A stretch of DNA of 64,000 bases from the NCBI GenBank assembly GCA_965153355.1, contig OZ231126.1, positions 5,208,001-5,272,000 on the forward strand, in the 5' to 3' direction. Position numbers and translations under genes: made by a program. The notes beneath the pieces are model-generated. The model was not told the origin of the DNA, ran no database searches, and saw nothing but the letters and a program-made list of their open reading frames with translations. The stretch is from Flaccisagitta enflata (lineage: Eukaryota). The stretch's first letter is position 1. The number at the start of each line of letters is the position of its first letter. This document shows positions 4,302 through 61,300 of this stretch, piece after piece.

Positions 4302-5076
4302 AAAAAGGGACGAGGTACGTTGCAAGGGCGATGTTCGCTTCAAGGATACAAATACACGCACTGTATTGGTTTGTACAAAAAGCTATGAAAGCGTTATTTT
4401 AGTTGCTAGCGGAGGGAGAGGGGAAGGGGGGAGTTGTAGCAAACGAAAAGTATTTGCTTAAAGCCTAAAGCGAGTTCTATAAACACTCGGAACACTGGTC
4501 CTTGACCATTGGACACTATCTTTTATGACTGTCGACTCCATGCATCCAAGTTATATATAAAATTAGATCCCGAGTTCCACAACATTTGGAGGGTCGAGCT
4601 CCTTTGTCCACTACTCCATTTCTCTTGAAGCAAGCAATGTACAATGCACAGTAAAACAAATCCGTATGAAAAGTCAAGAAAAAAAATCTTTAAACGTTTT
4701 TTCTTTTTTGGTTGAAGAAGGAAAAAAAAAATACGGATAAAGTAGATCAAACCTTAGTGAGTGGGGGGATTTTAAAATTCTACACCACGGTATGATCCGA
4801 TGATGAAGATGCCAAACTTGGCGACGGGTCGATGGTAGCTTGTGACAGACTACGCCACCAAAATGGATGGCTTTTGTCTTAATAAATGTAAAAAAAAAAG
4901 ATGTGCATTTGTGTGTGTTTGTATAAGAGATAAAAATGATGAAAATTCGGCAAATGCGTGATTGTGATTTGTTACATATTTTTTAAGACAGAAAAAAAAA
5001 GCGAAGTGGTTCAGGGATAAATGATAGAATTACATGAAACGGCACCGATTGCTTTTAAAGCAATAGTTGAACTTAC

Positions 5077-9980: not shown

Positions 9981-11736
9981 ATGCGGTGGCAATTTAAGGA
10001 AGATAATGCCCTCAGTAAGTACAATCAAGGTTGGGAGGGAAGTTTGCTTGCTTGCGAAACTAAGGAAGGAAAGGAAAGGCTCAATTCTGTCCTATATCCG
10101 AGCAACGCAATTTGCTTGGCCTGGGTGGGGATATGTGCGAGTGTCGACATGATTCTTTGGGGGATCAGCTGACGAGCTCTTTGTTCTTGATTCTCATTCC
10201 TATTTCTGATACTATAAGTGGTTAGGAAGGGGGGGAGGAGTGAATCTGAAAGGTTGCTCCATATAACCGCTCATAGGACGTGTAGGACAATTTTAAAGTT
10301 TGATGAATCATTCAATGATTTTGCAGAATCATTTTGATTGCGTAACTGGCTTGAAAGATGGTCGTTGAGGGACTGTGGAACAGTCCCTGGGTGTATGATC
10401 TAGCTCTTGGAACGATAGTAGGTTTAGGGGTCCAGTGAAACCAAAATTGTCTTAGAACCATCACGCTACTACCATCTAGATAGAAAGTATCAATTGATAT
10501 TTAAAAACAGGAAAATTCATGGTTGTGTTGTTCCTTAGTTGTTTTCTAATTTGTTATTGTCAAACAGTCATTTTGATAATTGCGCTTGTTTCATTCGTTC
10601 TCTCTCCAGATAATCGGCAAGCAGAATCAGCTAAAATCAGGACCAAATATCCGGAGAGAATCCCGGTACGCATCTCATTTTGAAAATGTCTCTTGCGTGT
10701 GCAGTTGTTGCTCATTCATGCATTCACGACCTTGGCCATCAATATTTGGATAGTTGAAAAGAATTTTCAACTTTGGCAGTGTCTTGCTCTCAAATGCGAC
10801 TTATCTGGGGTCAGTCGCTCCTTGTTGAGCAGCAGTTCGTTTTTTTTCTTCCAAATTTGATGCTTCTCTTCAGTTGACCCAATTTATTTATGGCCAAGAT
10901 GATAATTTGAGAGCTTTTGCCGGTTTCATCAGTAAGGTTTTGGGTTCTGCCAGGTGATCGTGGAGAAAGTGCCGAACACTTCGATTCCTGACATTGACAA
11001 GAAGAAATTCCTGGTGCCCAACGACATTTCCGTGGCGCAGTTCATGTGGATCATCCGGAAACGAATCCAACTTCCTTCGGAGAGAGCCATCTTCCTCTTC
11101 GTAGGCAAAATACTACCCCAAAGCAGCGCCAGCATGGGGCAAATATATCAGGAACACAGGGATGAGGTATTCATGGATACAACACAATGAAGTGGCTCCT
11201 CTCAACCTTATTTTCCTTGCGAATTGCCTTACTGGCTGGCAAGCTGATTGATTGATACACTGGATGGATGACTGGCAGGAATGCTGAATGACTTGCTCAC
11301 AAGATGGCTAGCTGGAAGGCTGGCTGACTGACTGACTGATAGATTGGGTGGATGACTGACTGGAATCTGAATGACTTGCTCAAATGCTGGCAAGCGGAAA
11401 GGCTGGATGACTGGTTGGTTTGTTAGGTGGCTAGTAGATGAGCTGACCAACTTATTATTTTGCTACTGATTATCTTGCTTTCGCCGTACTTGTTTATATC
11501 TCCTTGCTTGTTGCCCCTTTACCAGGATGGCTTCCTCTACATAGCCTACAGCGGAGAAAATTCATTCGGAAGGTAAATCACTTTGTCTCTCAATGTTTCC
11601 CAATTGTGGGGGGAGCATTTTGGTTCTCTTTGTCTTCATCCCGTTTCCTGCGGACAGCTTTGACTCTTTCTTATGGCTTTACTTTTGAGATACCATAAAA
11701 ATGAAACATTTGTTTTCTCTACCCAGCTCGGAGTGA
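9981..11736 (+). CDS. GABARAPL2: ATG8-family protein, GABARAPL2/GATE-16-like
   Basis: Exons 9981-10014, 10610-10665, 10954-11166, 11526-11572, 11727-11736. MRWQFKEDNAL...KIRTKYPERIPVIVEK...DIDKKKFLVP...DGFLYIAYSGENSFG-SSE*. Confidence 0.93.
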
Positions 11737-13209: not shown

Positions 13210-25286
<12,077 letters not shown>

Positions 25287-27439
25287 ACAGAAACTCACGG
25301 GAATATTGCGCATAACACAAATATAACATGAATAACATAACATAAATGGACGATTTACAGTTGGGACTGCCAGTAATTGACAGTGAAGAACTGCGCTCTC
25401 TCTTTTTGTGCGGTCCCCTCAACAAGAACTTGAGGGCGTGCATATATTGCCTCACAAGTCACAAGTCACAAGCGCATTTTGACTTAATCTAAGGAAGAGG
25501 GTTGGGGGAGCGCTAAAAAGGTGACCGAATAGATATTGCCCTGGGCCGAGGTTGTTGTCAATCAATGAGGACAGTATCGTGTCTTGTCAGTTATTCACGA
25601 TCGTATTGTGCGAACGACTGCATGTGCCCGTGCTATCGCATTGTCTTCGATTCGCGTACGTACTGTGTACGCGTACGTCGAACATGATGAGCTCAACTCT
25701 GGGACTATGGGAATTAGAGAAATTCGTCCACTGTGATTTTATGGACAGGCATGTTATTTTTGCCTCACAAACATCTATGAATTGTTTTAACTCGTCCTCC
25801 CTCTTTACCTTTCTTTGTTATTGTCTCTCAACAGCGTAACCTTAATAACCCGCAAATTGTATCTTTTATATTCATGACCCATTATTTGAAACAGAAGTTT
25901 AGACTAGTTCCAGTCACAAGTCATGATGGACAAGATAGTGTTCGCCAATTCGAAGAAAATATCAGAACTCCTGGCGCAGCCCCTAAAAGTGATCAGTTAA
26001 TCGGTCAACACTCCAGAGCGAGTTCTGAATTGTTCACCATCCTCGTAGGAAGATAACCAGAACGGGTACATGCCCCAGGGCCTGATAATGTTTGAGTGAA
26101 TAGAAAGTGATCATTGATTTCTTTTGAATCCAATCTCCCATGTTTTTAATTGCGGACACGTAATCTTATAACAGGCTTTGTCCGTTCGTCGTTCCGTGGG
26201 TTCGGGATGATCAAGTTGAAATGTGGGAAAACGGGCGACTCTTTTTGGGCAGCGGTCTCGATGGGAATGAAGTCTTGTAGAACACAGGGGGACTTTTGTT
26301 TGTGCGTCCATCTGTTCCTTTGTTCGTTCACACCCCCCCCCAAGCCCCCATCAGGTCATTGAGACTTCAAATCCACCCTTTCAGGTCCAAAATCTGTCCT
26401 CACAGGCCTTAAACCTGCCATCTCACCCTTCTAATCAGCTTTCTCAGACCCTTGATCAGCCCTCAGGATTTAAATCAGCCCTAACAGGCCACAAGTCAGC
26501 CTTAGCAGGCCTCAAGTCAGCCTTTTCAAGCCTCAAATTCGCCATCTCACTCTTAGGCCTCAAATCAGCCCTCTCATGCCTAAAATCAGTCTTCTCAGGC
26601 TTCAAATTGGCACTCTGGCCCCAAATCAGTCTAATCAGGCCTCAAATCCACCCACGAATGCACAATCTAAAGTCCACCGGTGTTCTACAGGGCTTCGTTT
26701 TCCTAGGGGCCGCTGACCTGCTTCCCTTCACTCAAATTTACAATCTCCTAGAGCAAGGCAACGGGCATCGCCGACCACATATTGCTCTTGGGCGACTGGT
26801 TGAGTATGTTTCTGGGGGGATCTGGATGGGGGTTGGACGCCCCTGCCTACCCGTCTGCAACGATATGGTAACCCGATGAGCCGTGTTAATTGTTGATTTG
26901 AGGAATGATATAAGCGTAATACTGCGGTCTGATGTCCAGGCCCACAACTACAGATTCAATGGTAGCAAAGCCGTCTGAAGAGGTCAAGTGCTTTGCTCTT
27001 ATGTCTTGTTTTCCTCGCTCTTCCCTGCCTGCTTTAGAATCCTCCTCGGCGATCCTCTGCCTTCTGAAACCTTACCATGGCCCCGTCCTTGGGAAAGCAC
27101 TTCACAATCGTTCATCGCTGTTATTTAATAAGACGCAATATGTAATAATGGAGCTTGAAGTAAAATCTGGTCCATAAAGTAGTCAGCTAGGACATGATAC
27201 CACTCTATTAACTTCACAAACCAAAGTTATTACGTGGTTCTTAAGATGATCCGGAGCTATGAAGAAAAACGCGTGTTGTCCATCGCTGACACAACAGACG
27301 TACAAGAGGAATGTCAATTGGGTTACCGCCTGTTTCTGAGGCCTATTGATTCCTTGCGTGACAAGTCAGCGGGAGGACCATCTTCGTGCAACGTCGTCAC
27401 CTGTCTTTAGAGCCCAATAATTGGTCGGCATTATCCATT

Positions 27440-28221
27440 TGAGATCGTTTAGCGTCTAGTTTCTTAGCAAGCTCCTGATGCGTTATCGCGAAAACTGACT
27501 CCACTGCGTAGCTGCGCTAAAGATTTGGATCGCACACCCGCTTAGAACGAATTGTTGAGATGAGCGGTCAAGTTGTCCGCGAAATCAGTCTATTCGTGGA
27601 ATCCTGACGGACAGAGAAAAAGGAAAAAGGTTAAGACAAGCTCTGTACATCAATGAAGGATACTTCTGTATGGCGCCAAAATGATAAAAGGTCAAGGACT
27701 TACACGGATGTTGTCGAACGGTTTCCAATCTAGGCGCAGGGCAGGGAAGTCGGGGAAAAAGCATCAAAAATCGAGTCTTTAACTGAGATCGTGTAATCGA
27801 ATGTCAGAAAGAAAGTCAGGGAAGCTACTTTTACTTAACCTGGAAATAGCAAAAAATGAGTCAAAACATCACGAGATTTGAAATTATTTGGCAGCAATGA
27901 AACAATAATAAACAGACTCGTCACGTCGTGGGAATTCGATAGAGGGGTCGAAGTCTTTCCTCCTCTAAGCGGTTGAGAAGATATAGTTCATCAATTCTCA
28001 ACCGGAAGTCAGCGCTTCCGGCGCGCGCGCGTTCCTCCCCTTCCTCCGTCGATCGAAGATCTCTCTCCTTCTTCCTCGATTTCCTCCACTCTGCAGTCGA
28101 GCGGACGCCATCTTGGATTTTCGATGGCGAGCCCCTCCTATTCTCCGGATCCGCGGAGTCGAATGCGTCCGATCGAGCGCTTCTTGACCTGGAGATGGTG
28201 GGGAATGTGGAGATTCTCACA
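27440..28221 (-). repeat. 3' LTR (782 bp)
   Basis: Direct repeat of 39133-39921, preceded by the PPT and followed by the TSD. Confidence 0.95.
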
Positions 28222-29056: not shown

Positions 29057-31396
29057 CTACTTCCGGCCTTTACCCCTGCCGCCCTTTCCTCCACGATAGG
29101 ATGGCGCGTCGTCTTTCCTACTGTGGCGTGGAGGGGGGTTTCTGCCGGAAGGTGGCGCGTGGTCGCTCGACGGCGCGAAGTGGCGTTGAGTGCCGGAAGT
29201 CGACGGCATTTGTCCGTCGGACTGAGAAAACTCCGCGCGGACGCGGTCGGCTTCCTTCTTCGCGTCGGACAGCAGCTGGGCCATCTGAGCGACCTTTGCG
29301 TCGTGCTCACCGACAACCTTCATCCTAAAGTTGTATTGTTCGATGAGCTTCCTCGCCGATCTGGCTCTATCCACGGCGTGATCGGCAGCGTAGATCGCGC
29401 GATCCATCGGAGATGAGTTGGGATAGAAGGCCGCCGGAAGAATGTCTACAACCTTTTGAATATCCTTTGACCGAGGATGACTTGGCAACTTGATGGCGGG
29501 CCAACATCGCTTGGTCAGAAGGTCCTCCGGCGATCGGGGAGGGCGATGTGAAGGAGAAGAAGCGGATGCCGTCGACGTTGACGACCTGTTGGACGTCGAC
29601 GCATCTCTAGGCTTCCTTTTTGGACGACGATTCTTCTTCTTTTTGTTGGCGTTTTGCTCCTCTCGTCGCTGTTGGTCGTCGTTGACGGGAGGAGGAGGAG
29701 GTGGGGGCAGATTTGCGGCTGCCCCTGCGAGCACACCCCGATGATTGTTCGTTGTCGTCGTCGTTTGAGTTGGGACACGGATTGGTGAAATGTCACGTGA
29801 CCGCTGGCGTTGAGGAGGAGGAGGCCGGGGAGCGGGATCATGTGGTAATCTCGCGGGACCATCCATCACCGTCGATGATAACGATGCGGATGCATCCGGC
29901 GGTCCACCCCTGCTCACCCGACGTCTCTTCTCTCTCACTTCGATTTGCAGATTGTTGGCGCCAGCATTGGCTCGTCGATCGTCTCTTGAATGATGTTGTG
30001 GAGGATCCTGCGTCGCGGGCGTCTGACGCTGATCGCTGCCACTTCCGGTCGAACGAATAGCCTCTGCGATCCGACGAGCAGCTCCTTCACGTCGTCTTTT
30101 CCTCTGATTTGAGGCTTTTCCACTGGAAATATCTCTCAAAGTCCCATTTCCCATGTCCGCCGTTGCTCCAATAGATCTGATGTTGATGATCTTGCACAAT
30201 TGGAGCGTCTCGCGTGTTTCAACCGTCGCAATCTCACCGTCCTCTTCAACTAATTCGTCTCTAACTCTTTGTGTCGGAACATATGCTCTTCGCTCGGCTT
30301 GTGGATGAAGAGCATCTCTCTCCGCGCGTAGGCGACGCTGCGTGTCGTGGTATATCGCAGTGTGCTTCCGCTCGATGAGGGCGTCGACTTGGGCGTTGTA
30401 GATCTTCACTAATTCGACAGCTTGTTCCTGCGAGATGGAGGACAGATCACTGATGTACGGCGGGATCACCAGCGTCGCGTCAGGTGATGCTTGAAACGGC
30501 GCCGGCGCGGTCGAGTCTGCGGCCGGCGTTACTTGTAACGTCGGCGACTCCACGACCGCCTGCGACGTCTGCGGCGGCGGCGGCAGAATTGGGGGAGCAA
30601 GGAAGGAGCAGTAAGTACCCCAAGGGGCCTGTAGTCAGGTCGAGCAACCTCCCCGGGAGAAGTCCTCTCCTTCCGTCATGTTCGTTAGTGTCCATCTTAT
30701 CGCCCTCACTGTCATCCTGGTCTCGTAATCGTCATCCGTCTGCCGCCGTGTGTCGTCGTCGTCATCGTCAAAGTCCAAGTTGTCAGGGTCATTTAAATCC
30801 TGTCGCTCCACTTCCTCTGCTCCGCGTGGCGGCGGGGGGGCGTCCGTGGTGGAGGTCGACGTCGACTCCCCCATGAGCGCCTCCACTCCCGAGACTGCCG
30901 TATCGAAGCTTTCGTTGGCAGCTTGTTCTCTTTTCGCCTTTCTTGCCGCCCGGAGCGCATCGTCGGCTTGACGACGCGCTTCACCGGCGGCGCGCTTGTC
31001 GGCAAAGGCGTTGGCATCGAACGCGTTGAGGGCCCGAGCAGGAAGAGGGTCCGTAACGGTCCACGCGCCGGAAGACGAGTCGTTGAAGAGATGGCTGACC
31101 CCGTCGATGACGTCATCAGCTCCTCCAGCGACGGACTGTTGCAATCCGCGAAGCCTGCGTTGTTCTCTGAGGGACGCAGCCCTGGCCTCCTGCTCCTGTC
31201 TCCTCCTCTTCTTCTCCGGGTCTTTCTTCTCTTCCTCCACTTTCTTCTTCTCCTCTTCCACTCTCGCCCGCTCCTCTTCCATCCTCCTCGTCTCCTCCTC
31301 ATGGCTCCTCACCAAATCGGCCTGGGCTCGCGCCATGCGCTGCCTCCTCGCTTCGCGGATCTCGTCCGGCGTGCCTTGGTTATTCTGCTGCGACAT
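29057..31396 (-). CDS. Accessory ORF(s) of the BEL/Pao element downstream of integrase (253 aa + 498 aa, same frame, one TGA between)
   Basis: ATG at 31396 follows an acceptor at 31409-31408. Protein is charged/coiled-coil, Pro/Arg-rich, with a basic RGG-like end and no signal peptide or TM helix. Confidence 0.6.
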
Positions 31397-31939
31397 GATG
31401 GATCTTTCTGCAACAGTTATGCGACGATACCGACAAGGGGAAGCTTTTAGCGTAAGATAGTGTAAACGCCTGTTTTTGGAGAAAATTCAGATTTCGAGAT
31501 GTAACAAGACGGAAAGAGGAAGACATATCCATTAACATTGAGGAAGATTAAATGGTATACGCAGACAAAGAAATAAGACTCTTCGATCAGCGCCTCAAAT
31601 GACCTCCATACTCAACAGTCAATGATATGGATAAAACGGAAAAGGAAATGACGAACAAATGCCTTTATATGGTCAATACAAGATTGAAATGGCATGGCAA
31701 ATTTAGATTGTCAGTCAATCATGCAGACACTCTCAACTGACTGGGGCACCATGTACCTCTCTCTCTCCTGTCTTCACACACAAAGACATATCAGACAGAC
31801 CGACTGAGAAAAAGTAAACAAGACCAAAAAATAATCATGAGAAAAAAAAATCCTCATTTTCGGCATAGTCTTTGCAAATAGAAACACTTGTGCTTCTCTC
31901 TGGTCTACTTTCTCTCTCTCTCTTCACACTTATCCGTTT

Positions 31940-34900
31940 TTAATCTGAATCCAACTCCAATCGGACGATCTTCGACCGATCCTTGAGAACAATCTTGCCG
32001 TCGGGGCGTCGGATCTGTGCTTTCCGGACGTGACCACCAGATCCTTCCACTTCGACGACGCGTCCCAAAGACCACTGATGCCGATGAAGCGTCTCGTCAA
32101 CGATGATGACCAATGCATCTTTTTTGATGTTCACTTCCGATTTTGTCCATTTGCTCCTTGCGTGCAGCAACTGAAGGTATTCGGCGCGCCATACCTTCCA
32201 GAAGGCGTCAACGCGGGCCTGTGCGTTTCTCCATCGGCATCTCGTTCCCACGGCGTCGTTTCCGGTCTCTGGAGGAAGAATAGCTGCCGACGAGTGTGAG
32301 AACGTCGATGGATGCAAGATGTTGACCGGCCTCAGCGCTGATGTATCGCTAGGATCGTCGCTCAAAGGCGTGAGAGGTCGACGGTTGAGAATTCCCTCCA
32401 CTCAATCATGCTGTTTGGAAGACGTCGTAATGGAGCACGTGACCGGAAGTAATGGACGCCAAATGTTTTTTGAAAAGGGATACGACCCTTTCCCATACGC
32501 CGCCGTAATGAGGAGTCCCCGGAGGAATGAAGTCCCATTGGAGTCCATGCTGCTGCAGAGCCACTGTCGACGACGCGTTCCACGACTGCATCTCCTCCTT
32601 CATGACGCGATTCGCCCCAACCAGGTTGGTGCCACAATCTGATATGAAGCGACGCACCGTTTGCCGTCTCGCCGCGAATCTAATGATGGCGTTGATCATT
32701 GCCTCTGTGTCCATTTTAAACAACACCTCCACATGCACCGCCCTCGAAACCATGCAGGTAAATACAACCGCCCAGACTTTATGATCCGCCCTGCCGTTGA
32801 GTTTCACCAGGAAATGACCCATGCAGTCGAGTCCCACCTCCTCGAACGGCGCCGTTGGAATAAGTCGTCGTTGAGGAAGAGGCGCCATCTGCTGCTTCAT
32901 AGGATCTTTGAAGTTCCTTTGGCACGTAACACAATGGTGGATGACCGTCTTCACTGCCTGGAGACCACGAAGAATCCACACAAAGCGTCGCAGTTGGCAC
33001 AAGACGTGTTTTGGGCCTGCATGAAGATCCTGATGATGGACATGGCGAATCAAAGAAGCGACGTTTGGATCCTTCGACGGGAGAATCATCGGATATTTTT
33101 CATCATGGCCAATATCCGCATTCACAAGTCTGCTCCCGACACGCATCGTTCCTTTCTCGTCGACAACCGGATTGTGATGGCGTAAGTCTTGCAGATCACT
33201 TTGGCGCCGGCGTCGTTGATCAGCGGCGTCGTTTTTCCCACCGCCTTCAGTTTGGTTATTTCTCCACGGAAGTGTTTGTACTGGATTGCGTTGATCAAGC
33301 GGCGTTGTGCATCGTATACTTCAGCCATAGACACAGAATACGGGTTTGGCAGCGTCATCGTTGCTGCTCTTGTTTTCGCCTTCACCTTCTGTCTCCATCG
33401 CTGCGCACACTTCACAACCACGGCGATCAGACGCAACTTTGCCACCCAATCCTGGCGACGATCAGCCACTGAATAAGCGAACATCTCCTTTTCCTTCTCT
33501 CCTTCCTTCTCCTCCACCGTTTCCGTCGCGACGGCGTTGATTGACGCTTCCGGCGCCGTCGCGATGTTCATCACCGGCCACTCAGATTTGGGAAGGTAGA
33601 GAAACTTCGGACCGAAATGGAAGATGTCCCATTTTCCTTGTCGCCGGCGTCAATACCCCACGAACAATAGTCCATGAGGTTATTCTCCGAATCAACCCAC
33701 CTCCATTGAGAATCACTTGAGCCGCTGTGGATTTTTGAAAGTCGGTTTGCGAAGAAGCTTGGACGTTTAGACTTATGGTCGAAAATCATCTTCAGCACCG
33801 CCTCTGAATCTGACCAGAGCGTCACCATGTCCTCAGTCACCTTTGGAATGGTCCTCTTGATGAACAGTTTGAGTTTCACCGCTTTCTCTGCCGCTGTCAT
33901 TTCTAACCTCGGCACTGAATTATGGTGCGACGCTTTTGACGCATCAAGAGGGACGACGTGAGCCTTGGCGCACAAAATGGTAACGCGGATTGTTCCATCC
34001 TCATCTTCCACCAACCAATAGCCCACTACCCCAAAACCAGGGATGGCGGCGTCGCAGAAGATGTGAACTTCACGTCGAACGGCCTTCACAATGCCCCATT
34101 CAATGTGGCGCGGAATTTCAATCTGGATCAGCAATGGAGTCGCAGAGTACCATTTGGCGAAGCGTTTGATTAACGCCTCCTCCATCGTCGAATCCCATCC
34201 CTTCTCGGAAGCTCTCGTCAACTGAAGACACCTCCTCCCTTCAAGGGCGCGGGGGGCAGTGAAGCCTAATGGATCATAGTTGTCGGCTTGCATGGAGACC
34301 AATTCGCGAGGAGTCGTTGCCACCCTCTTGCATGCTTCTGGATCGCATCTGAAGATGAAGCAGTCCGTCGACGGCAACCATTGGACTCCCAAGACCTTCG
34401 TCGGCTCCTCGAGTTTGGCGCTCAAGTCGACTGCGACATTCGGATCGTCGTCCATCACCTCCACCGCGTTCGATTTCCATTTAGTTAACGTAAATCCGCC
34501 GCTTTTCATGGCGGCGATGAGATCCTGCTTCAGCTGCAGTGCTTCGTCGACTGAATCCGCACCACCAGAGCCATCATCGACGTAGAAGGCATGCCTCAAC
34601 ATTTCGTAGACGTTTTCCGGGAAGTCGGGCTTGATCTTCTCTGCGTGATGGCGTAAAACATAGCTGGTGACGAGACTCGATGACACAGATCCAAAGATGT
34701 GCGCCAAGAAGAGCATCACGACTGCCTCTCTCATGCTTTTGTCAGTGAACCACATATATCTGAACGTGTCCGCGTCCTCAGGATGGACGCGGACATTATG
34801 AAAGAACGCCTTTATATCAGTCATCAGACCGATTTTATAAAGGCGAAATTTCATAAGAACTTCAGTCAAGACGTTCATGATATTCGGACCTCCAATCAGT

Positions 34901-35934
34901 AGTTCATTGAGGCAGATGCCACCAGTCTCCGCGCGTCCATCGTGACAAATCCGCGTTTTATTTCTTTCCTCCACTACATGGATAGGCAAGTACCAGCGTG
35001 GCGATGAGATGCTTGCGTCGTCATTCGTCGGATCAATCTCAATCGCCACGCCCGTATCCACAAATTTGTCCATTTCTTTGAAGACGCGATCGCGGAGGTC
35101 ATGATTATTTGAGAGTTTGTATCGGAGACTTTTTGTCCTCTTAATCGTCATCGCGCGTGCGTTAACGGATTTGATAATCTCGATGATCTTCTCCTTGTCA
35201 TAGCGCCATGGAAGTCCCACGACGTATTTTTGGAGTTTCTCGTCGAAGTATATCGTCTCCATCACTCGTTTCACCGCGCGACGATTCTCTTCAGACTGGC
35301 CCATTTCTTCCTCCGACACAATGGCGAAGTCGTGATAGAACATGCGGTCGAGAGATTTGCTCAATGCGACGTTATCCACGTGGATTGCGTTAATGACAGC
35401 GGTATCATCTGATCTTCGTCCACTCTTCCCTGCTACAGTCCATCCAAAACCGCATCTGAAGGCTGTCAAAGATCCTGATGGACCTCTTCTTGCCTCCACA
35501 GGCATCGTCGCGTCGTAATGGGCGGCGCCGATGATCAATTGGACAGGACCATTTGCTTTTGGAAATGGAATATCGCGAAGATGAGATTGATTTGTGAAGT
35601 CGCGTTGGCATGGAGCAATATCCGCTTCACCCGTCAATAATTCTCCCGTTAGTGCGTTGCTGATGTGGACGTTGTATTCCTCGTCAATCGATGAAAGGAT
35701 GAAGGACGCCAAAACTTTCTCCTCCACCACCTCACAATTGACCGTATGCACGCGCATCAGCATCTTTTCAGTTGGTAAGTCTAATTTTTTAACGATTTGA
35801 AGCGATAAAACGTCACGATCCGCACCGCTGTCGATCATCCCCAACACTACGGTGGAACGGCCCGTCGATGCGTTGGTGATCTTTACAGGAACAATCGGTC
35901 GCGTGACATCATCCTCCGCGACCACCGTCCTCAT
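31940..35934 (-). CDS. pol: BEL/Pao pol (protease, RT, RNase H, integrase), frameshifted
   Basis: MIDSGADRD protease, FYVDDG RT, HIFCDAA RNase H, HVHHQDLHAG...CVTC zinc motif, ISDCGTN and GGVWER integrase core, LNRRPL...FWKVWRAEYL C-terminus. Split over ORFs 33571-35934, 33122-33574, 32406-33146 and 31940-32401. Confidence 0.93.
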
Positions 35935-35952
35935 CGCGGAGGTGGCAGCGAG

Positions 35953-38900
35953 TCATGCCTCCATCACCCTTCCTTCATCAGATGCAGAGTCATCCGTCGA
36001 CGAGCTGCTTGGGGGTGCTGGAGGAACGGTTTTGGCGGCGGCAGCGGCTGCGGCTAATGCGGCGGCATTCGGCGTCTTGAACGTGATTCCTTCTCCATTC
36101 CCTTTTGGCTTCCATTGGCGGTCGTGCAGCAAAGTTGCGTGTCTCTTGTTGCAAGATGAGCATGTTGGCTTGTCTTTGCAGTCGCGCGCCGAATGGTTTG
36201 GGCAGAAACAATGAAAACATAGACGTTTCTCCGCCAACTTCTTCACTCGATCCTCTGCTGATGGGATGGCTTCCAAAACATTGCACGAATGAGAATTGTG
36301 ACGACCTCCACAAATATTGCAGATGTCGTTGGGTTGCTGTTTCGGAGGTGAGTTGACGAGCTGTTCCTTAAACGTCGCCGGACCAACTGCAGTCGCTGCA
36401 ACCTTCGTCGGTTTCGGCGCCATGCGTGTTGGTTCTTTGAGGTTGTTGTACGATACCCAATGTTTCACTTCCTCGATGAGTTCTTGGAAGCCGTAAGCCG
36501 TGCCATGGCGAGCTTGTTCACGCGCGCTCGCTTTCCAATAGTCCGTCGAGATGTGTGGCACCCTCGCGTTGATGATGCGGCGAATGTGGACGTCACGATC
36601 ACACTCTCCAGGTACATTCAGCAATTCTGCGACGTTTTCCAGTTTGTACAACGTGCCAATCAATGATTGATGGGCTCTCATATCGTTTTCTGGGACCTTT
36701 CCTTTCCTGCAGATGCTGTCGACGGCCGATTGGAATGGGTTGGCGCTCGTGTTGAACATCTCGTCCAGGCGTCTCCACAAGGTGCTGTAGACACGGCGCA
36801 TATTGTGCGCCTTGATGATAAGTTGTTGACCGTCGATAATTTCCTTCGCTGGATTCGCGAAGACGTTGGCCAATTCAGTCACTTTGTCGATTTCGTCTAG
36901 CTCGATGTTGGAGGCGGCATTTTCGAATTTAGACTTGGCGATGATGTAGTCGATCGGCTCGAGGTATCCATACGCTTCTCTTGGACGTGCTGCGCGCATT
37001 TCCCTCAATCCCACGTCCTTTGCTCTGACGCGGGCGTCGTAGGCGATCGGGTTGTCGATGAAAGAGGCGGCGTTCATCCTCTCGGCGAAGGACTGCGAAT
37101 GTGCGAGGCCATTTCGCGCGGAGTCACTTCCGGTTTGACGTCTTTGATACATAGGAGGCGACGGCGTTGGGGGTGGCGTCTTCCTCGACTTCCGTCTGTC
37201 GACGCGTTCGAACCCCTCGTCATCGAAGACGTCGTCGACCAGAGGGCGCTGACTCCCGCGTACATTTCGGGATGCTTGTGGAGCTGGAAGATCACCCGCG
37301 ATCTGGCGGACGATGACGGGTGAGCTTGGTGATGGCGGCGTCGATTTGCGCGGTGGAACACGTGTCTGCAAAACGACGCTGTCTTCCAGGTTGAGATCGC
37401 TGATCAATTGTTGGACCCTTGCCATTGCGTCCGCGTGATCCATCGCGTACTTTTCTTGTTCCGCTGCATCTTGTCTCGTGCGCAGTTGCTCGTGGAGAGG
37501 ATGTTCACGTGCGGCTGGGGGTGGCGTCTTGGAAGGTGGTTGTCTCTGCTGGCTTTTCTTTTGCGCCTCTCTCCTCTTCCTCTCCTCCTCCTCTTTCTTT
37601 TTCTTCTCTTCCTCCTTTTTCTTTTCTTCGCGTCTTTTCTTCTCCTCCATCCTCTTTCTTTCTTCCGCGTCTCTTTTTGCCACCGCCTTCCTTCTCTCCT
37701 CCTCTGCTTTCCTCTCTGCTTCTCTCCTTTTCTTTTCTTCTCTCTCCTCTTTCTCTCTTTTCTCCTGGGCGATCTTGTTTTTCAAGTTCGTCCTCCTTTT
37801 CTCCTCCTGCTCCTTTCTCGTCTCCTCTGCCTTCCTTCTCACTTCTTCAGCGTGGATGCGTTGTCTCTCCTCCTCCTCCTCCTTCTCTTTCTTCCTCCTC
37901 TCTCCTCCTCCTTTTTTCCTCTCGTCAATTCCGGCAGTGACCGCGTCTGTCCGGGCAGTAACGGCTGCGTCTATTGCGATGTTTGCCGTCAACTGCCGGG
38001 CATTTTCTTCGCGTTGTTGAGATACAGATCGCGAGCTGGACGAATCGCGTGTTTGCGCGTGCTTCTCTCGCCACCGAGCGTCGAACTTGGTTGACGTCGT
38101 TGACCAGACGTTGGACGACGTTCCACCATCGCGTCGCCTTGAGCGTTTTTCGCCGTCGACGATCGACTGCTGTAGCATGTTGAGAAGATCTTGTGTGGGA
38201 GGGGCGCCGCCAACGGCGCCTGGAGGGAGGTCGGCGTCGTTGTTCGGCCATGACGTTTCCATCGCGTCGTCGGCGTCATCGTCTCCATCGTCTCTAGCCG
38301 ACAAGAAGCGCGACCTCGCCGGCGTCGCCGGCGTCGGAGGTTCAAAGTTTATACGTATCTCCTCGGCGTCTTGTATCGCGCCTGGCGTATGGGGCGGCGC
38401 GTTGTGGCGTTGTTCCGCTGCATGAGATTCGCCGCTTCCGTACCGACGGGCAAGTCGTCCTCTCCCGCGTCTCCATCGTCGCCGGTTGTGTTCGGCGTCG
38501 ATTTGCGTCGTCGTGAAAGGGACTGGACGAAATGCGTCGACGACCCCATCGTCATCTCGAGAGCGCGTTTTGCTCCAGTCTCTGGTGACTCGTCGTGGAT
38601 GTCGTGGTAAGTCGGCAGGAATAGATGCGACGCAAAAGTGTTTTTGTCGTGGAAGCATGATTGGTCCCACAGTTTCCGTACTTCCGTCAATGAGCTTTCG
38701 GCAGTCGATAACAGTGACGCCGCTTTGTCGGGATTGTTGGTCGACTCTGCATGTGAGTAAGTCTTTGTCTGGTTGACAAGTCGCCACGCCGCTAACCACA
38801 CCTCCTTTCGAAGGCAGTCCATATCTTGGTAAAAGTCCAATATATCGTCGTCGTCGAGGGTATCGGCTTGTTTCAACGCCGACATGTATGCGTTGCGCGT

Positions 38901-39089
38901 GTTGCGTAGCGCCTTTCGTAACCCGCGAAGCGTCGTAGCCACGGGGTCCATTGCGCCCGCGTAGACAGATGAGTCGGAAACGACAGACACACAGTCGGCT
39001 GGACGAAAGGCTTTTCTGCGTTGATTGGGCAGCGAAGGTGGCGGCATTGACATCGCGTCGGCGTTGGCGTTGTTGTTGGCGGTCGACAT
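35953..39089 (-). CDS. gag: BEL/Pao gag (one frameshift near 38400)
   Basis: Triple Cys/His knuckles CNICGGRHNSHSC, CFHCFCPNHSARDC and CSSCNKRHATLLH, typical of BEL/Pao. Long E/K-rich coiled coil. Confidence 0.88.
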
Positions 39090-39132
39090 CGTTGACGTTG
39101 CGTGGATCGTTGATGGTTTTGATTCCACGAAT

Positions 39133-39921
39133 TGAGATCGTTTAGCGTCTAGTTTCTTAGCAAGCTCCTGATGCGTTATCGCGAAAACTGACTCCACTGC
39201 GTAGCTGCGCTAAAGATTTGGATCGCACACCCGCTTAGAACGAATTGTTGAGATGAGCGGTCAAGTTGTCCGCGAAATCAGTCTATTCGTGGAATCCTGA
39301 CGGACAGAGAAAAAGGAAAAAGGTTAAGACAAGCTCTGTACATCAATGAAGGATACTTCTGTATGGCGCCAAAATGATAAAAGGTCAAGGACTTACACGG
39401 ATGTTGTCGAACGGTTTCCAATCTAGGCGCAGGGCAGGGAAGTCGGGGAAAAAGCATCAAAAATCGAGTCTTTAACTGAGATCGTGTAATCGAATGTCAG
39501 AAAGAAAGTCAGGGAAGCTACACTTACTTAACCTGGAAATAGCAAAAAAATGAGTCAAAACATCACGAGATTTGAAATTATTTGGCAGCAATGAAACAAT
39601 AATAAACAGACTCGTCACGTCGTGGGAATTCGATAGAGGGGTCGAAGTCTTTCCTCCTCTAAGCGGTTGAGAAGATATAGTTCATCAATTCTCAACCGGA
39701 AGTCAGCGCTTCCGGCGCGCGCGCGCGTTCCTCCCCTTCCTCCGTCGATCGAAGATCTCTCTCCTTCTTCCTCGATTTCCTCCACTCTGCAGTCGAGTGG
39801 ACGCCATCTTGGATTTTCGATGGCGAGAGAGCCCCTCCTATTCTCCGGATCCGCGGAGTCGAATGCGTCCGATCGAGCGCTTCTTGACCTGGAGATGGTG
39901 GGGAATGTGGAGATTCTCACA
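39133..39921 (-). repeat. 5' LTR (789 bp)
   Basis: Direct repeat of 27440-28221; differs by a few substitutions and short indels. Confidence 0.95.
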
Positions 39922-40105
39922 CCATTGGTCCTATGTTTCGACATGCATTACGATATTGTAGCAACGCGATGAATGGATTATGACATGTACACTTACCTTT
40001 TTACTTCCGCAGGCGCAAGTCCTTGATTAGCACAAAAAAATTGACTTTTATTGAACTTTAATTTGCCGTAAAAAGAAATCGAAACTGTGAAATTCGTTAT
40101 TGACG

Positions 40106-43100
40106 ATGGCGTTGCTGACGAAGGGATTGTTCCATTTGTTGCGGACGTCGTCTCGTCTGTCGACGCCGTGCTTCATAGCGCCGGTCAAAGGCGCTTCCAT
40201 CGCTTCCGCCGCCACCTCGTCCAAGTCGCCGACCTCCGCCGCCAACGCCTCCGCCAACATCTCGGCCAATTCATCTTCGCGCGTGAAAAAGTTCCAAATT
40301 TACCGATTCAATCCTGAGAACCCGGGAGAAAAACCGCGCAAGGAAATCTTCGAAGGTACAGTAGATCTCGTCTAGACTTGAGATAACGGCGGCAAGCATT
40401 GTGGAAAAACAAATGAAGCCAGGGGAGTCGGGTGTGTCAATATATAAAAGGTCTTTTGATCAGCTCATCATCATCAGGGAGTGTGAAGACACTAATTACA
40501 AGACACTTACCATTTTTATTTTTTTCAATTTCAATCATCTTCCGTTTTTTTAGCGCGAGTAAAGATTGTCAAAAATATATATACTTTTAGCGACTCTACC
40601 CAGTTTTGTTGAAAATGAGACTGATATATCATTCAAAAAATTATGTTTTTTTTGTTACTATTTCTTCTTATGAAAAGTAAAACATTTTGACCAATTCTTT
40701 TTAGATTAAAGAATAAGATAAGAAATGGGTTCTGATTTTTATTCTTATGATCAAGAATCCCGGTGCAAAACCAGCTGCACTACAATATACAAATTAGGGG
40801 CTAAATGGAGATTTGAAAAAAACGGAAGACGAATGAAATTAAGAAAAACAAAAATGGTAAGTACCTTAGAATTAGTGTCCCAACACTCCTTGATGATGAC
40901 AATCTGATCAAAAAAGTTTTTTGAATTTTGACACACCCGACCAGGGGAGTGATATTTGAAACATAGACTTATAAAGGGATAGTTTATTACCCATGATAGC
41001 TGGTTGCTATGGAAACGCATTTCTATGTATTTTCGCTAAAATATCAATATTTTGAGAAATTTTTTGAGGGAACATTTTTTAAACTCAAATTTGCTACAAC
41101 TTTCCCACAGTATGATCTGTAAGAATGTCGCTCCTTTAGCGGTTGCCAGGGGTCGTCACACATGGATAGCTCCCTAGCAACGGCCAAACGAGCGATATTC
41201 TTACAGAACATACTGTGGGAAAGTTGTAGCAAATTTGATTTTAACCAATGTTCCCTAAAAAATTTTTTCAAAATATTGATATTTTAGCGAGAATACATGG
41301 AAATGTGTTTCCATGGCAACCAGCTATCATGGGGAATTAAGCATCCTTTGACTAGTCTATGATCAAAATATCGCTCCCCTGCCTTCATTCCTCTTTCCAC
41401 AATGCTTGCCCCCGTTATCTCAAGTCTAGACGTGATCTACTGTACGGGTTGGCCAGCTAGTTTTGTTAGCTAATGGTAGTACAAATAGTGCTCATCCCGT
41501 TCGGTATCTCGGTAATAAATTGAACGTTGTACCGAATTTCTTTATCTTTTTAGTGGATCTGAACAAGAGTGGGCCGATGGTTTTAGACGCGTTGATCTAC
41601 ATCAAGAATAATCTCGACTCCAGTCTCACCTTCAGACGCTCTTGTCGCGAAGGTAAATCACGACGTTAAGTGAAACCCCACTACAAACGATTCAAAGCGT
41701 TTATCCAACTGCTACCGCCCCACCCCATTTAGGCTTTTGCTATTCCTGTGCGTTGAAACTCCTCTATTCTGAAAATCTAGCTGTAGTGTAATTCTTCCCC
41801 TTCCCCCGGCTTCGTATAGTCTGAAATCGTACTTTAACGCAATTTTTTCCCCTTCCCTTTATCAGACATCTGTTTTTCTTCTTGTTTTTTTTTCTGTAAA
41901 TAAAGAGGAGAGCATGGCAAACAAAATCAGTGGTGGGCAAAATTGCATAAGAATGGAAAAGTAACAGTAGTTTTTTTTACGTATAAGAAGATCAAAAATG
42001 AATGTATACAAAGGCACAAATGGGAATCACAGAATCACGGAATCATTCTTGTTGAATCTGTGAGCAATCTAAATATCTGCGCCAGCAACGGAAATTTGGC
42101 TGTAACGCTATTCCTCTCCCCCCCCCCCCCCTTCTTCGCTTTATCAGGCATTTGCGGTTCGTGTGCGATGAACATCAACGGCCGCAACACTTTGGCCTGT
42201 CTCTGCGCAATCGACGATCCAGCCAAAACCACGAAAATCTATCCCTTGCCGCACATGTACGTCGTCAAAGATCTCGTGCCAGGTGATTGGGGATCAGTGC
42301 TGGGAGGTTTCCATTACGCATACGGCATACAGGGGATAAGTTGGTTGCCGGATGATTCTGGATCAGTGGTGGGAGTGCTGTATGTGATTCCAGATCACAG
42401 TTTTGACGGCTGGGAGATTCCAAATATGAGGGTTAGTCGGTTCCAAAGAACTTGGAGTTTGTGGACAGTCTCGAATCTCTGTGGTCCAACCCCGAAGATT
42501 TAGCGATGATGATATCGATGACCCTAGGATGTGCGATGACGAGTGACGACGACGATGATAGCGATAATGACCTATCAAATATCCTATCAGCCCCGATGAC
42601 AATTCCTCATTCTCTCCCTCATGTACCTCCGCCTCCCGACTCGGGTCTCTTTACCCCTCACCATTATTTCAATCCACGACTCTCTCGTCTCCCCCCCCTC
42701 CCCCCTCATGCAGATATGACCAACTTTTATCAGCAATACACGAGCATCGAGCCGTATCTTCAACGTGACGGCGAACAAGTCTTTGGCGAGAAGGCTCATT
42801 TTCAATCGGTCGAAGATCGAGCCAAACTGGATGGTCTGTACGAGTGCATTCTCTGCGCTTGCTGCACGGCCAGCTGCCCCAGGTACTTAAATCAAATTGG
42901 ATTACGTCATTTAAATGCTTGGTCTGTCTGTCGGTCACACTAAGCTTTTTGGCGGGATCAGAAAACCGTTTTAATTCAAATGGTTTTTTAATTAATGTTT
43001 AAAGAAATCAGACGAAAAAAAAACACATCAAATATCACAATGATAGGTTTCGCTTCAGCTGATCTTTAAAAGCCTCTTTCCAGCCCACTGTTTACTCGAG

Positions 43101-53083: not shown

Positions 53084-56000
53084 ATGATGTCCGCGATTTA
53101 CCGCGCAACGTCCGGTTTCATTGAGATTGAAGCTTCCGTAACTCGTCTTTCTCGCACCTTTTCTTGTCTTTGCGCCGCTTCGCAATCAGACAGACGATCG
53201 ACCGTCTCGCCGAGACGGAAGACCAGTGTTTCTAGTGTTTTATCATGGGCAGGGACAACCATTGTCGCATCAGGAGCGAATATGAACGCGAAAATGACGA
53301 CCAAGAAAGCCATGACGACCTCGTTGTCTCTACAACCACGTTTGTCAGGCAGCAGCAACGCGAACCGAAGATTATTATTTTCGAATCCAACGTTTCATCG
53401 GCATTCCTTCACCACTTCCTCAAAAACAACAACAACAACATCATCAACAACCACATTAACGAGTATCCGAGCTTTTACTGAACGATTCCAACCCAAAAAC
53501 TTGGTCCAACTCGCCCCTCGGTCGTCTCAGCCTTATCTTCTTTTGATGCGGTTGGACAAACCCATCGGGACTTGGTTGTTGTACTTGCCGTGCACTTGGG
53601 GTATCGCTATGGCAGCCGCGCCTGGAGCATGGCCCGATCTCGGAATGCTCGCTCTTTTTGGCACCGGTAAGTCGGGTTGTTCTTCTGCTTGTTCTTCTGC
53701 TTTCACGTTTATTCTCAAGTGATTGTCTCCGATGTTTTTATTGTTGCTGCAAATGACTGCGTATGCCGTATGATTTGTTGAAGCCAACGTTTGTGTACAG
53801 ACGCAGGCACTGTACTGCACTGATGCGCGGTGCGGGATGCACTATCAACATACATGTGGGATTGCGACTAAAGGTGTGATGTTATCCACCACGCTCTGTG
53901 CTGATGTACGTGATGCGAGATGCAATGTCAATGACATGTGGGATTACGAGCAGAAGGGTTATCTGTTGTGATGTTATCCTACTGGCGCTGTGCTGATGCG
54001 TGGTGCAGGATGCACGATCACGACATGGGATCTTGACTAAAAGCGTTGTTTCCGTTGTGATATTATCCTACAGGCGCTGTGCTGATGCGTGGTGCAGGAT
54101 GCACGATCATGACATGGGATCTTGACTAAAAGCGTTGTTTCCGTTGTGATGTTATCCGATAGGCGCTGTGCTGATGCGTGGTGCGGGATGCACTATCAAC
54201 GACATGTGGGATCGTGACTTTGACAAACATGTTGAAAGAACAAAAGCTCGCCCTTTGGCTAAAGGGGACGTCTCCATAAAGCAGGCAACCGCGTTCTTAG
54301 GTATCATTGTTTGTGGTAATTTAAAGGTTTGTGCGTGCTTGATGTGTGCATGTTTTGGATTTGTTTGCTTGCGCGTGCTTCTTTGGCTGAGTTTGTTTGG
54401 GTTTGTTTGTTTGGATGTGCTAGTTTGTGTGTGCTTGTTGGTCTTTGCTTATTTAGCTTAGCTTGTTTGGGTTTGCTTGATTGTGTGTGCTTGTTTGGCT
54501 TTGCTTGATCGTGTGTGCTTGTTTGTGTGCGCGCCTGTTGCTGTTTGAGCGTTTGTATGTTTATTAAGGTCCATTTCTCTTCCGCCTCTCTCCCCTCTCT
54601 CTCTTACAGCATTACAACTATCGGCTTCGTGATTGATCTTGTTGCAACTTATCTGGTATTCCGTGTTTTTGGGCGCATCTTCATTGCTCATTGTGATGAC
54701 ACACCCCCTTTCTTCCCTCTCTCTTACAGCATTACAACTATCGGCTTCGTTATTGATCTTGTTGCAACTGAACTGGTATTCTGTGTTTTTGGGCGCATCT
54801 TCTTTGCTCACCATGATGACTTACCCTCTTTCTTCCTTCTCTTACAGCATTACAACTATCAGCTTCGCTATTGATCTTGTTGCAACTTATCTGGTATTCC
54901 GTGTTTTTGGGCGCATCTTCATTGCTCATTGTGATGACACACCCCCTTTCTTCCCTCTCTCCTACAGCATTACAACTATCGGCTTCGCTATTGATCTTGT
55001 TGCAACTGAACTGGTATTCTGTGTTTTTGGGCGCATCTTCTTTGCTCATCGTGGTGACTTACCCCCTTTCTTCCTTCTCTTACAGCATTACAACTATCAG
55101 CTTCGCTATTGATCTTGTGGCAACTGAACTGGTATTCGGTGTTTTTGGGCGCATCTTCTTTGCTCATCGTGGTGACTTACCCCCTTTCTTCCTTCTCTTA
55201 CAGCATTACAACTATCAGCTTCGCTATTGATCTTGTGGCAACTGAACTGGTATTCTGTGTTTTTGGGCGCATCTTCTTTGCTCATCGTGGTGACTTACCC
55301 CCTTTCTTCCCTCTCTCACAGCATTACAACTATCAGCTTCGCTATTGATCTTGTTGCAACTGAACTGGTATTCGGTGTTTTTGGGCGCATCTTCTTTGCT
55401 CATCGTGGTGACTTACCCGCTGATGAAGCGCTTCACTTACTGGCCTCAATTCTTCCTCGGTCTCGCCTTCAACTGGGGCGCTCTCTTGGGATTCGCCGCC
55501 GTCAAGTGAGAATGGAATCGATTGATGTCAGGTCATCGGGGAAATAAAAATGATAACGATTTCTCCTCCGTATTGCGCCGTTATTACTCGCGTTGAATTC
55601 ACGCTTGCGGGTGGGCACCGTGGGCATTGGGGCAATAATTCGGGTGGGCAGGGGTAGTATGGGACAGGGCGTGGGCTGTAATCAGGCTGGGCATTGATGT
55701 CAGGTCATCGCGTAAAAATGATAATTTTCTCCTCCGTCGATTTCGCGTCATTCTTGCAAGACGGGTGGGCAGGGGTAGTATGGGACAGGGCGTGGGCTGT
55801 AATCAGGCTGGGCAGATGCAGTCGCGTTCAGCCATTTCGCGTCATCTAAAGACAAAACCTTGTACAGAGTCGCTTTTCTTTTTACTCCGTTCTTTGTTCA
55901 TAGTCATCCTTTAGAATTCATTAAACCTTCATTTAAGTCATTCAACTTCCATTTCCTCTCTGACTCCAAACCCCCCCCCCCCCCCCCAGTGGTTCTCTGA

Positions 56001-58342: not shown

Positions 58343-61300
58343 CCCCGCCGTCAATTTCACGTTTCCGGTCGATGGGACAAACGCGATTATTACGAAGTGT
58401 TGGGCGTCAGTAAAAACGCCACCACCAAAGAAATTAAAAAAGCTTATTTTGAAAAGGCGAAGAAACTGCATCCGGACGCGAACCCCAACGACCCGTCGGC
58501 TGGCGAGAAGTTCCAGGAAGTCTCCGAAGCTTACGAAGTGTTGAGCGACGACGGGAAAAAGTCGCAGTACGATACTTACGGAATGGCCGGGGATCCCGCC
58601 AGCGCATCCGGTGGTGGAGGAGGAGGAGGAGGAGGACCCGGAGCCAATCCATTCGCGGGAGGATTCGGCGGATTCGGATTTCAAGGTATGGCAAAAAAAA
58701 ATAATCCTGTGGCTGTGTCTATTCTGTGAAGTATGCTAGTAAAGCAACGCGGCAGGCAAGCCTCAAAAGTGTGGTGGATGTGGCCAGCCAAGGGGGGTCG
58801 GGGGTGGAATGGAGAGGAAACATTAGCAATAGCGCTTGTGCATATCAGCCTTTGTTTCATTGATCTGTGGATGAAATCTCCATTTACATATTGCATTTAT
58901 ATATGTTATTATATATTTTGGGCCGGGACCTATCAGGGTTACAGAATATTCTTTAGCACTCAGCTACTTGAATCTATGTTAGCGCCTTATGCCCTTGTTA
59001 GCTGTTAATTGAGCACTTTATCCCTTGGGGTAATACCACCCTGGTCCCAAGCTCAAAACTATAATTGGTATTGGTAATCCCAGTGAACTCTATCATTAAA
59101 CTATCTTGGGAATTACTTGTTCCTAATCAGCAATCCTATAAATAAATCCACAATGGTTAACTTTTAGAACAAAACACAAGAGTTTATTAATTGACAGAAA
59201 TTATCAGGCATTGAGAACATAAGAGAATAAAAGTTTTCTGATCACTTGATAAAATATTACCTCCCCCTCAAGTTCCCCCTTAGAGTATTTTAGTTTAAGT
59301 TATAAGATATTGGACTACTTAGAATTATTTTATCCCAATTTATATCAAAACTCCCACTTAAATGGACTCTGGCTAATACTTAGTCTCTACAGAGACTTAA
59401 CAACCTTTACAGTGTCTCTACTGAGACTTTACCACTCTTACAGTGTCTCTACTGAGACTTGAACACTTTTACAGTGTCTCTACTGAGACTTGAACACTTT
59501 TACAGTGTCTCTACTGAGACTTAAACACTTTTACAGTGTCTCTACTGAGACTTGAACCCCTCAACAATGTCTCTACTGAGACTTGAACACTTTGACCGTG
59601 TCTCTACAGAGACAGAGTTACCTTAGTGGAGTAGTAATAAAATAATACTTAAGGCTTTATCACTTAAAATAAGATTAACTTAGACTTAAGTTAGAAATAG
59701 AGTTAGAAGAGAAATAAGTAACTTTAGCACTTAGACTATAGATAAAGTATAGTGGAATCATTAAGTGACAAACCACACTTATAATTATCAATACCTTTGG
59801 TAGAAGTTGACTGACAGAGGTCAGATAATAATTTCAGCTTATTTATTTGGAAGAGCAGGAGAGATGTCCTTCTTCTAGGAAAGCCAAAATCTGAATGAAT
59901 TACCTGGGAAAATCTACTCCACACATCAACTTTGTTTTGCCTCCAGCTCCCTGGAAGGAGCTAATTTGTGCTGGTTCCAAGGAGCAGCCTTGCTCCCCAA
60001 TATGAGCTCCATAGGAATTGGATGTTTAACATTGTGCTCCTATGGAGGAGCTAGCTAGCTCCAAGGAGGGAGCTTAATTTGATCTGCCACCCATGAGCTA
60101 CCTTGCTCCCTGGAGGAAGCACCATTGGAATAGGCCGTTTAACATGGAGCTCCCTCAGGGGAGCAGCCTTGCTCCCCGGAGGAAGCTAAAACTCACTGAT
60201 TTCACATTGTACTAATAATATTGGAGTAGGATACTATGAGAATGATACATTTACATACTTATTTAACACAACCATTGGGTTAAATACCCTAATTGCCAGA
60301 GTTTGAGCTAATACTATGTTATTTTAATCCTTTCATTTCCCCCCCTTTTATGTGATCAGATTTTAGATAAAAGTTATCATGAGAAACAACAATCAATACA
60401 GTAGCAATACAATTAGCAGGAATTAACAGTGATTTACAAAACAGTGAGCAATTCAACAGCTAATGTAACTAAGTTGATAGTAGGGCCCATAACTAGATAG
60501 CTTATTCAAAAGCTAATTAATCACATTAGAAATGCCCCTTGTAGCTAGATAGTAGCCCCAAATGACAGGGAACTATAAACATAGTTAAGCCATGTCACAT
60601 ACTTACCCATTCCACTTTTTACAACATATGTTTTAGACAGGCTGACAAATGTTCTTTATACAAGAATCGGATCATTCTTATCGTCAGATAATTATTTGTT
60701 AGTCTGAAACAAAGGTTCCTATGAATTCTTGATAACCATGTCATATGGCCCAGTATCCATAATTTCGTTTTACCCCCGAGTATGATTTCGTTTTGTTCAA
60801 AGAGTTGAAATAAATCAGAAAATTGCTGCTTTTGGACGAAATGCTTCTTGTCGCACTATTGCTTCTTGACGAAAGTGTTTTGGCCAATATACGCTGCGGC
60901 GATGTTGAGTTGCATGTGCGGAATAATCACAGATTCAGTTGAGTAGCGCTATACCTAATGGTTGATCACTTATGATAAACAGAAGGTTGCTTCCCCATTT
61001 GTTCAACCCCTTTGACTCTCTTTCCTTCCCCCCCCCCCCCTTCCTTTGTCCTTATTCCTGCTTCTCCTCCAAATCAGGTTACCAGTCTCAAACGAATCCC
61101 GAGGATTTATTTCGTAAAATCTTCGAGGATTTCGGTGGTTCGTTCGGCGGCGCGGGAATGGGAGGAGGAGGAGGGGGATTTGGACGAGAGTCAGTTCAAG
61201 GATCGACGCAAGAAATCGTCATGGATTTGAGTTTCCAGGAGGCCGCCAGGGGAGTCAACAGAAAGGCGGCTATAAACGTGGTAAGTGTATGAAGGGGGGG

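Follow-up and report, generated by a model that had tools for sequence, protein, structure and literature searches.

Organization and classification of the element

The 64-kb window (the whole stretch of DNA that was analyzed, in which all coordinates below are positions unless a locus is named) contains a BEL/Pao element of 12,482 nt that lies on the minus strand and is complete with both LTRs. From 5' to 3' on its sense strand it comprises the following features:

39922..39926, minus strand: target-site duplication AATGG, upstream copy, with the identical 5 nt at 27439-27435
39133..39921, minus strand: 5' LTR, 789 nt, TGTGAG...GATCTCA, delimited from repeat families and sequence
39297..39300, minus strand: TCAG after a pyrimidine-rich tract, a candidate initiator with the putative RNA start at A39298
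39285..39296, minus strand: candidate self-primer GATTCCACGAAT (5' arm), whose 3'-terminal U is complementary to A39132, the base that follows the LTR
39121..39132, minus strand: candidate primer-binding site ATTCGTGGAATC (3' arm), adjoining the terminal CA of the 5' LTR
35956..39089, minus strand: gag, with its ATG at 39089-39087 and Cys-His knuckles near the C-terminus
35953..35955, minus strand: TGA-CTC in frame at the gag-pol junction, a candidate site of programmed readthrough
31943..35952, minus strand: pol, with a DSGA protease motif at its start, reverse transcriptase, Peptidase_A17 region, integrase and DUF5641, in four frame pieces
29057..31486, minus strand: third reading frame of 808 codons, interrupted by one stop and rich in proline and charged residues
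28222..28231, minus strand: polypurine-like tract AATGGGGGAC, adjoining the 3' LTR on its 5' side, with GGGGGA at 28228-28223
27440..28221, minus strand: 3' LTR, 782 nt, delimited from repeat families and sequence, with a second copy of the upstream 12-mer at 27603-27592
27435..27439, minus strand: target-site duplication AATGG, downstream copy, matching 39926-39922

The only differences between the two LTRs are a few small indels and substitutions. At the outer edge of the 5' LTR the loose ends of 10 contigs from one sequencing run (X1) continue into internal sequence bearing the polypurine tract, which confirms 39921 as the first base of the LTR and moves it by one from the 39920 given in an earlier, sequence-only reading of this DNA. 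A39132, the base that follows the 5' LTR, is by coincidence the same letter as the one with which the target duplication begins beyond the 3' LTR.

Searches of the pol product against Pfam recovered Peptidase_A17 (at 2e-28), RVT_1, Integrase_H2C2, rve and DUF5641, and the identical set of domains is found in 96 pol homologues, the nearest of which are unnamed metagenome proteins. The proteins P0003-P0035 stand for dozens of further families, with pol identities of 36-56%. Based on the content and order of the pol domains the element is a member of BEL/Pao (Belpaoviridae), and the TG...CA termini of its LTRs, the short target duplication and the polypurine tract are those of this superfamily. 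A pol of the Ty3/gypsy chromovirus type, as is found in the Tf1/sushi clade, is not what it encodes, the assignment to BEL/Pao being the same by Pfam and by all homologues. Elsewhere in the window we noted a MITE-like inverted repeat of 210 nt with a 20-nt loop and 87% complementarity (40942-41381) and several tandem arrays (54482-55435, 61144-61969 and 18350-19073, with periods of about 118-120, 160 and 150 nt).

Coding regions and the gag-pol junction

Translation of gag in this copy needs a change of frame, from the ORF that holds the ATG (38349..39209) to a second one (35953..39141), and its C-terminal part displays 29% identity to that of L001, a related metagenomic locus described below. 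The pieces of pol are 93-99% identical to an uninterrupted protein of 1332 amino acids (P0001). The frame breaks in gag and pol reflect either decay of the copy or indels introduced in assembly; the latter rivals decay as an explanation because the LTRs likewise differ only by small indels.

In all ten related elements that we compared (the window element, L001-L005 and L007-L010) gag and pol occupy a single frame with one TGA between them, followed by CT[A/C/G]; in L001 this TGA lies at 4965-4967. The open frames are long on both sides of the TGA, with the contigs of L002 and L004 beginning inside the upstream frame. UGA-CUA is a readthrough-prone context, and the conserved arrangement looks like programmed stop-codon readthrough, judging from its recurrence across these elements. 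The accessible text of the ICTV profile for Belpaoviridae, in contrast, describes gag and pol as continuous or overlapping, and readthrough is not among the arrangements that it lists.

The third reading frame of the window element matches no Pfam family. L001 likewise has a third frame downstream of pol (9031-10560, more than 510 codons), also charged, proline-rich and without a Pfam match, and a BLAST comparison of the two recovered no similarity between them. This frame brings the element to 12.5 kb, above the 4.2-10 kb that the same text of the ICTV profile gives for genomes of the family.

A self-complementary site at the edge of the 5' LTR

The sequence-only reading had pointed to a 12-mer directly following the 5' LTR with a perfect complement inside the LTR, repeated in the 3' LTR, and this is borne out directly by the letters: GATTCCACGAAT is the exact reverse complement of ATTCGTGGAATC, with all 12 pairs being Watson-Crick and 152 nt separating the two arms. 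Equally sound was its observation that the pairing stops exactly at the LTR edge, since the flanking bases are mismatched on both sides (A39133 opposite A39284, and G39297 opposite A39120). As it had further noted, a TGG-initiated tRNA site is absent from the LTR edge: no TGG occurs at offsets 0-4, and the sole TGG begins 5 nt in.

A pattern search of the 64 kb allowing up to one mismatch recovered only the three sites (39132-39121, 39296-39285 and 27603-27592), against 0.41 expected by chance. When the LTR was shuffled with preservation of its dinucleotides, an edge-anchored complement of at least 12 nt arose in 24 of 100,000 shuffles, and the same match with offsets of 0-5 allowed arose in 21 of 20,000. 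This rarity of the edge-anchored match indicates that the self-complementary site is real and unlikely to be a product of chance. The placement of the site directly 3' of the 5' LTR, with a perfect complement within the LTR (12/12 in the window element and 9/9 in L001), is one of the defining features of the self-priming class of elements, for which Tf1 is the model.

Folding of the RNA from its putative start to just past the site predicts, in both the minimum-energy and the centroid structures and for both the window element and L001, that the helix between the 5' end and the site closes the structure. The folding energies of the whole leaders are ordinary (z-scores of -1.13 for the window element and +0.41 for L001), so that only the closing helix is noteworthy and not the leader as a whole.

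The upstream arm abuts the TCAG at 39297..39300, which we take to be initiator-like. Two further candidates in this region were set aside. A second minus-strand TCAGGATT, at 40317, lacks a partner downstream and resembles host sequence, and a match at +28 of the putative RNA start of the window element to what we take to be the consensus of the downstream promoter motif is absent from L001.

A related family in which both arms have changed

A search of metagenome contigs by means of a 22-protein pol alignment yielded 10 loci, nine of which stop short of the junction between LTR and leader; a corresponding search of viral contigs gave 52 pattern matches, none of them a relative. The one locus that reaches the junction, L001, encodes a pol 43% identical to that of the window element. 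Here, the sequence CTTTTACA is followed, directly after a CA and about 390 nt before the ATG of gag, by the site ATTTAATCC at 1889-1897. The perfect 9-bp complement of this site, GGATTAAAT, is preceded by CTGCCTCA and lies at 1751-1759, 138 nt upstream of it. The upstream arm ends in a base, U in the RNA, that is complementary to the one immediately following the CA, and beyond it pairing is impossible. As the contig holds only one LTR, the probable LTR edge of L001 was placed from this CA and from the pairing.

Most of the region surrounding the arms aligns poorly between the two families. What they have in common is TCAGGATT together with the pyrimidine-rich tract (1748-1755 in L001), and in both the upstream arm is located at TCAG, with that of L001 starting within this conserved motif. 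The outer parts of the helix are identical in the two families (GGATT/AATCC and AAT/ATT), whereas its center differs on both arms together, being CCACG:CGTGG in the window element and A:T in L001. The sequence-only reading had held that relatives which keep the site but lose the complement in the LTR would count against it; this is not so in L001, where both arms differ and are still perfectly complementary. In 87 of 20,000 shuffles the reverse complement of the L001 9-mer arose at some position within the following 400 nt, a figure that does not yet take the CA into account, and a general test with unanchored positions gave 164 of 5,000 shuffles, which is weak when taken alone. Part of the complementarity in L001 may be inherited rather than independent.

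The remaining loci offered no further usable pair of arms. The contigs of L007 and L009 start in the leader, without the junction, and that of L008 extends 551 nt upstream with no definable LTR end, its sole CA-anchored match being a low-complexity 8-mer (CCCCTTTT/AAAAGGGG). The 9-mer of L005 falls inside gag and is for the most part a palindrome.

A tRNA-type site in an outgroup and searches for tRNA sequences

We also examined a more distant BEL/Pao element, L011 (6906-14499 of its contig), which has 25% pol identity and serves as an outgroup. Both of its LTRs read TGTTGG...CCAACA and its target duplication is CTCCC. Its primer site is TGG-initiated and begins 3 nt after the CA, and the longest complement of this site in the LTR is 6 nt. 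The 17 nt of the site equal the start of the tRNA-Tyr-GUA antisense probe printed in the accessible text of PMC12268536. A classical tRNA site is hence easily recognized where it is present, as in L011, and no such site is recognizable in the window element or L001. Relative to the 3' LTR, the 5' LTR of L011 carries an insertion of 741 nt (7038-7778). The contig that carries L011, a complete BEL/Pao element of animal type, is assigned to a bacterial metagenome-assembled genome, which probably reflects contamination of the bin with host DNA.

A search for tRNA genes found none in the 64-kb window or in 12 loci. Rfam gave no match at the gathering score across the window, and with the E-value relaxed to 10 over 38900-40000 it returned three chance-level matches with nothing tRNA-like, a search that a short fragment would escape. 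Judged by eye against the tRNA positions that we take to be invariant, the sites of the window element and L001 do not run on as the complement of a tRNA 3' terminus would. In the full-text literature the 12-mers turned up in three papers only, unrelated ones that by their titles are probably primer listings.

Abundance of the family and variation around the site

The element family is extremely abundant in its host, with a summed word depth of up to about 2.9e5 over 38900-39960, and is also encountered in marine metagenomes from several studies and in metatranscriptome libraries. Over the same interval 1100 contigs were aligned, 112 of them at less than 90% identity. All four runs consist of assembled contigs, from which the starts or ends of RNAs are not readable; DNA and RNA contigs alike break near 39293-39300, and because those of DNA do so too the breaks are no signal of a transcription start. 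Variants occur at 39080, 39116, 39138, 39177 onward, 39310, 39327 and 39333, and among the variants listed (40 of 85) none falls inside either arm and none is compensatory within the family. The majority of contigs carry a single additional base following 39116, immediately 3' of the primer site. A single DNA contig of run X1 joins 39139 to 39293 and lacks nearly all of the sequence between the 12-mers; with a depth of 25.9 and a shorter side of 23 nt, this join is probably noise or a rare deleted copy. As the family is both very abundant in the host and seen in metatranscriptome libraries, material for a direct test of priming exists.

Proposed mechanism and alternative explanations

Based on this arrangement we propose, as the reading that we find moderately probable, that minus-strand DNA synthesis in this BEL/Pao clade is primed by the element's own RNA in a Tf1-like manner and not by a host tRNA. 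Transcription would start at or beside the conserved TCAG, at about A39298, and the nucleotides near the RNA 5' end (39296-39285) are predicted to fold back onto the observed complement at 39132-39121, directly 3' of U5. By analogy with Tf1, the RNase H of the element could then cut after U39285, leaving a short RNA with its 3'-OH paired to A39132, and extension of this primer into U5 by the reverse transcriptase would set the DNA end at the terminal CA. Plus-strand strong-stop synthesis would subsequently copy the primer and thereby rewrite the primer site in every cycle, which might explain how the two arms remain fully Watson-Crick paired while differing jointly from one family to the next. 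The sequence-only reading had arrived at the same interpretation: its geometry holds, the arms of L001 covary, and L011 combines a tRNA site with an LTR devoid of the complement, while the start of the RNA is placed from the TCAG. Its further suggestion that self-priming evolved independently in BEL/Pao draws on two families and one outgroup. More tentatively, we posit that a whole clade of marine-animal BEL/Pao elements, comprising at least two families 43% identical in pol and perhaps all of the relatives known as proteins only, has swapped host tRNA priming for Tf1-like self-priming, joined with gag-pol readthrough at UGA-CU[A/C/G] and a long third ORF; this broader version is a real possibility for which we would claim somewhat less than an even chance.

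An alternative that we regard as unlikely is binding of the site by a small RNA of the host, for instance half of a tRNA or another piece of one, as known from copia-type elements; the copy in the LTR would then act as a regulatory stem that masks or presents the site. Half-tRNA sites without a leading TGG are indeed known from Ty1/copia lineages (accessible text of PMC6317226), and the ICTV profile, in the part available, has Belpaoviridae as tRNA-primed. Yet the sites of the window element and L001 differ, such that each family would need a different host RNA, and each LTR would also have to carry the sequence of that RNA at the same TCAG. Moreover, across the two families the 21 pairs are without exception Watson-Crick and stop at the LTR edge, neither of which a masking stem needs, and the relaxed Rfam search of 38900-40000 described above points the same way, short fragments aside. 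The match might alternatively lack any function, an explanation to which we assign very little weight: CA-anchored matches of 8-10 nt are frequent, with one to several in each locus, and the 9-mer of L001 by itself is not rare (the 164 of 5,000 shuffles above), but the anchored 12-nt match is (24 of 100,000), and the arrangement recurs at the homologous TCAG in L001 (87 of 20,000 before requiring the CA).

A purely structural role for the pairing, in packaging, dimerization or translation control or as a U5-type stem, with priming taking place elsewhere, for example at the TGG located 5 nt (window element) or 10 nt (L001) past the LTR, appears to us improbable. CGTGGA does occur soon after the LTR in both families, and additional stems at the primer site are needed in Rous sarcoma virus and Tf1, according to the accessible portions of PMC5445492 and PMC5443660. 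However, the sequence after these downstream TGGs shares just TGGA between the families, and in neither does it continue like the complement of a tRNA T-arm when set against the positions that we take to be invariant. The implied spacer of 5-10 nt also exceeds the 3 nt of L011, and a structural role would not account for a helix that, in the one family as in the other, stops exactly where the LTR does.

Implications

BEL/Pao is the least studied of the LTR-retrotransposon superfamilies, and in the accessible text of the ICTV profile its replication is called "poorly understood" and is assumed to be tRNA-primed. Hairpin self-priming has been suggested, in the part of PMC3601003 available, as an ancestral state. 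If self-priming were true of the whole clade, the mechanism would be present in all three LTR-retrotransposon superfamilies, whether by new origin or by retention, a distribution that bears on this idea of the ancestral state. The BEL/Pao clade would then represent a third, independent example and help define what an RNA needs in order to prime itself. On a practical level, annotation pipelines that seek only tRNA-complementary sites would report "no PBS" for such elements.

No paper in the full-text literature was found to link self-priming with BEL/Pao, the search lying outside subscription journals, Repbase reports and supplements; a BEL/Pao survey and the paper on Sinbad leave primer sites unmentioned. 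The novelty asserted by the sequence-only reading has to be narrowed in one respect, as self-priming outside the Tf1/sushi group had already been predicted for Tcn1 and the TAR lineage (accessible text of PMC6317226).

Comparison with known systems

For these, namely the Tcn1 clade and the plant Ty1/copia TAR lineage (Houba, Osr-1), the prediction was made in silico from the complementarity between the LTR and the site, as described in the accessible text of PMC6317226. Both belong to superfamilies other than that of the window element and reside in plant or fungal hosts. In the retroviral U5-IR-type stems, U5 pairs at the primer site and aids initiation (PMC5445492, in the part available). 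Unlike the duplex of the window element, such stems flank a tRNA site and do not fill the whole site up to the LTR edge.

The domain set and order of pol, the TG...CA LTRs, the 5-bp duplication and the polypurine tract are those of canonical Belpaoviridae (genus Semotivirus), some members of which also possess a third ORF, as stated in the accessible text of the ICTV profile. That text describes a primer site of 18 nt whose complement is the 3' end of tRNA-Arg or tRNA-Gly, in agreement with the premise of the sequence-only reading that BEL/Pao elements are described as tRNA-primed. L011 fits this canonical picture, but with tRNA-Tyr. The window element departs from it in its self-complementary site without a leading TGG, its length of 12.5 kb and the in-frame TGA between gag and pol.

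The length of the duplex is 12 bp in the window element and 9 bp in L001, and that of Tf1 is 11 nt. As in Tf1 of Schizosaccharomyces pombe, Tj1 of S. japonicus and the Tf1/sushi group, the site adjoining the 5' LTR finds its complement further upstream in the element itself, in the LTR or the putative start of the RNA; cleavage there would leave a 3'-OH flush with the LTR edge, and a recognizable site of the tRNA type is lacking (accessible text of PMC4600332 and PMC6317226). In Tj1, too, gag ends in a stop codon, and its self-priming was proposed on this same kind of evidence (PMC4600332, same part). The pol of the window element is that of BEL/Pao and not of a Ty3/gypsy chromovirus, unlike in Tf1/sushi, and whereas self-priming, with the RNA start and the cleavage, has been demonstrated for Tf1, the start and cleavage proposed for the window element are putative. 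The window element belongs to BEL/Pao and appears to operate in the manner of Tf1.
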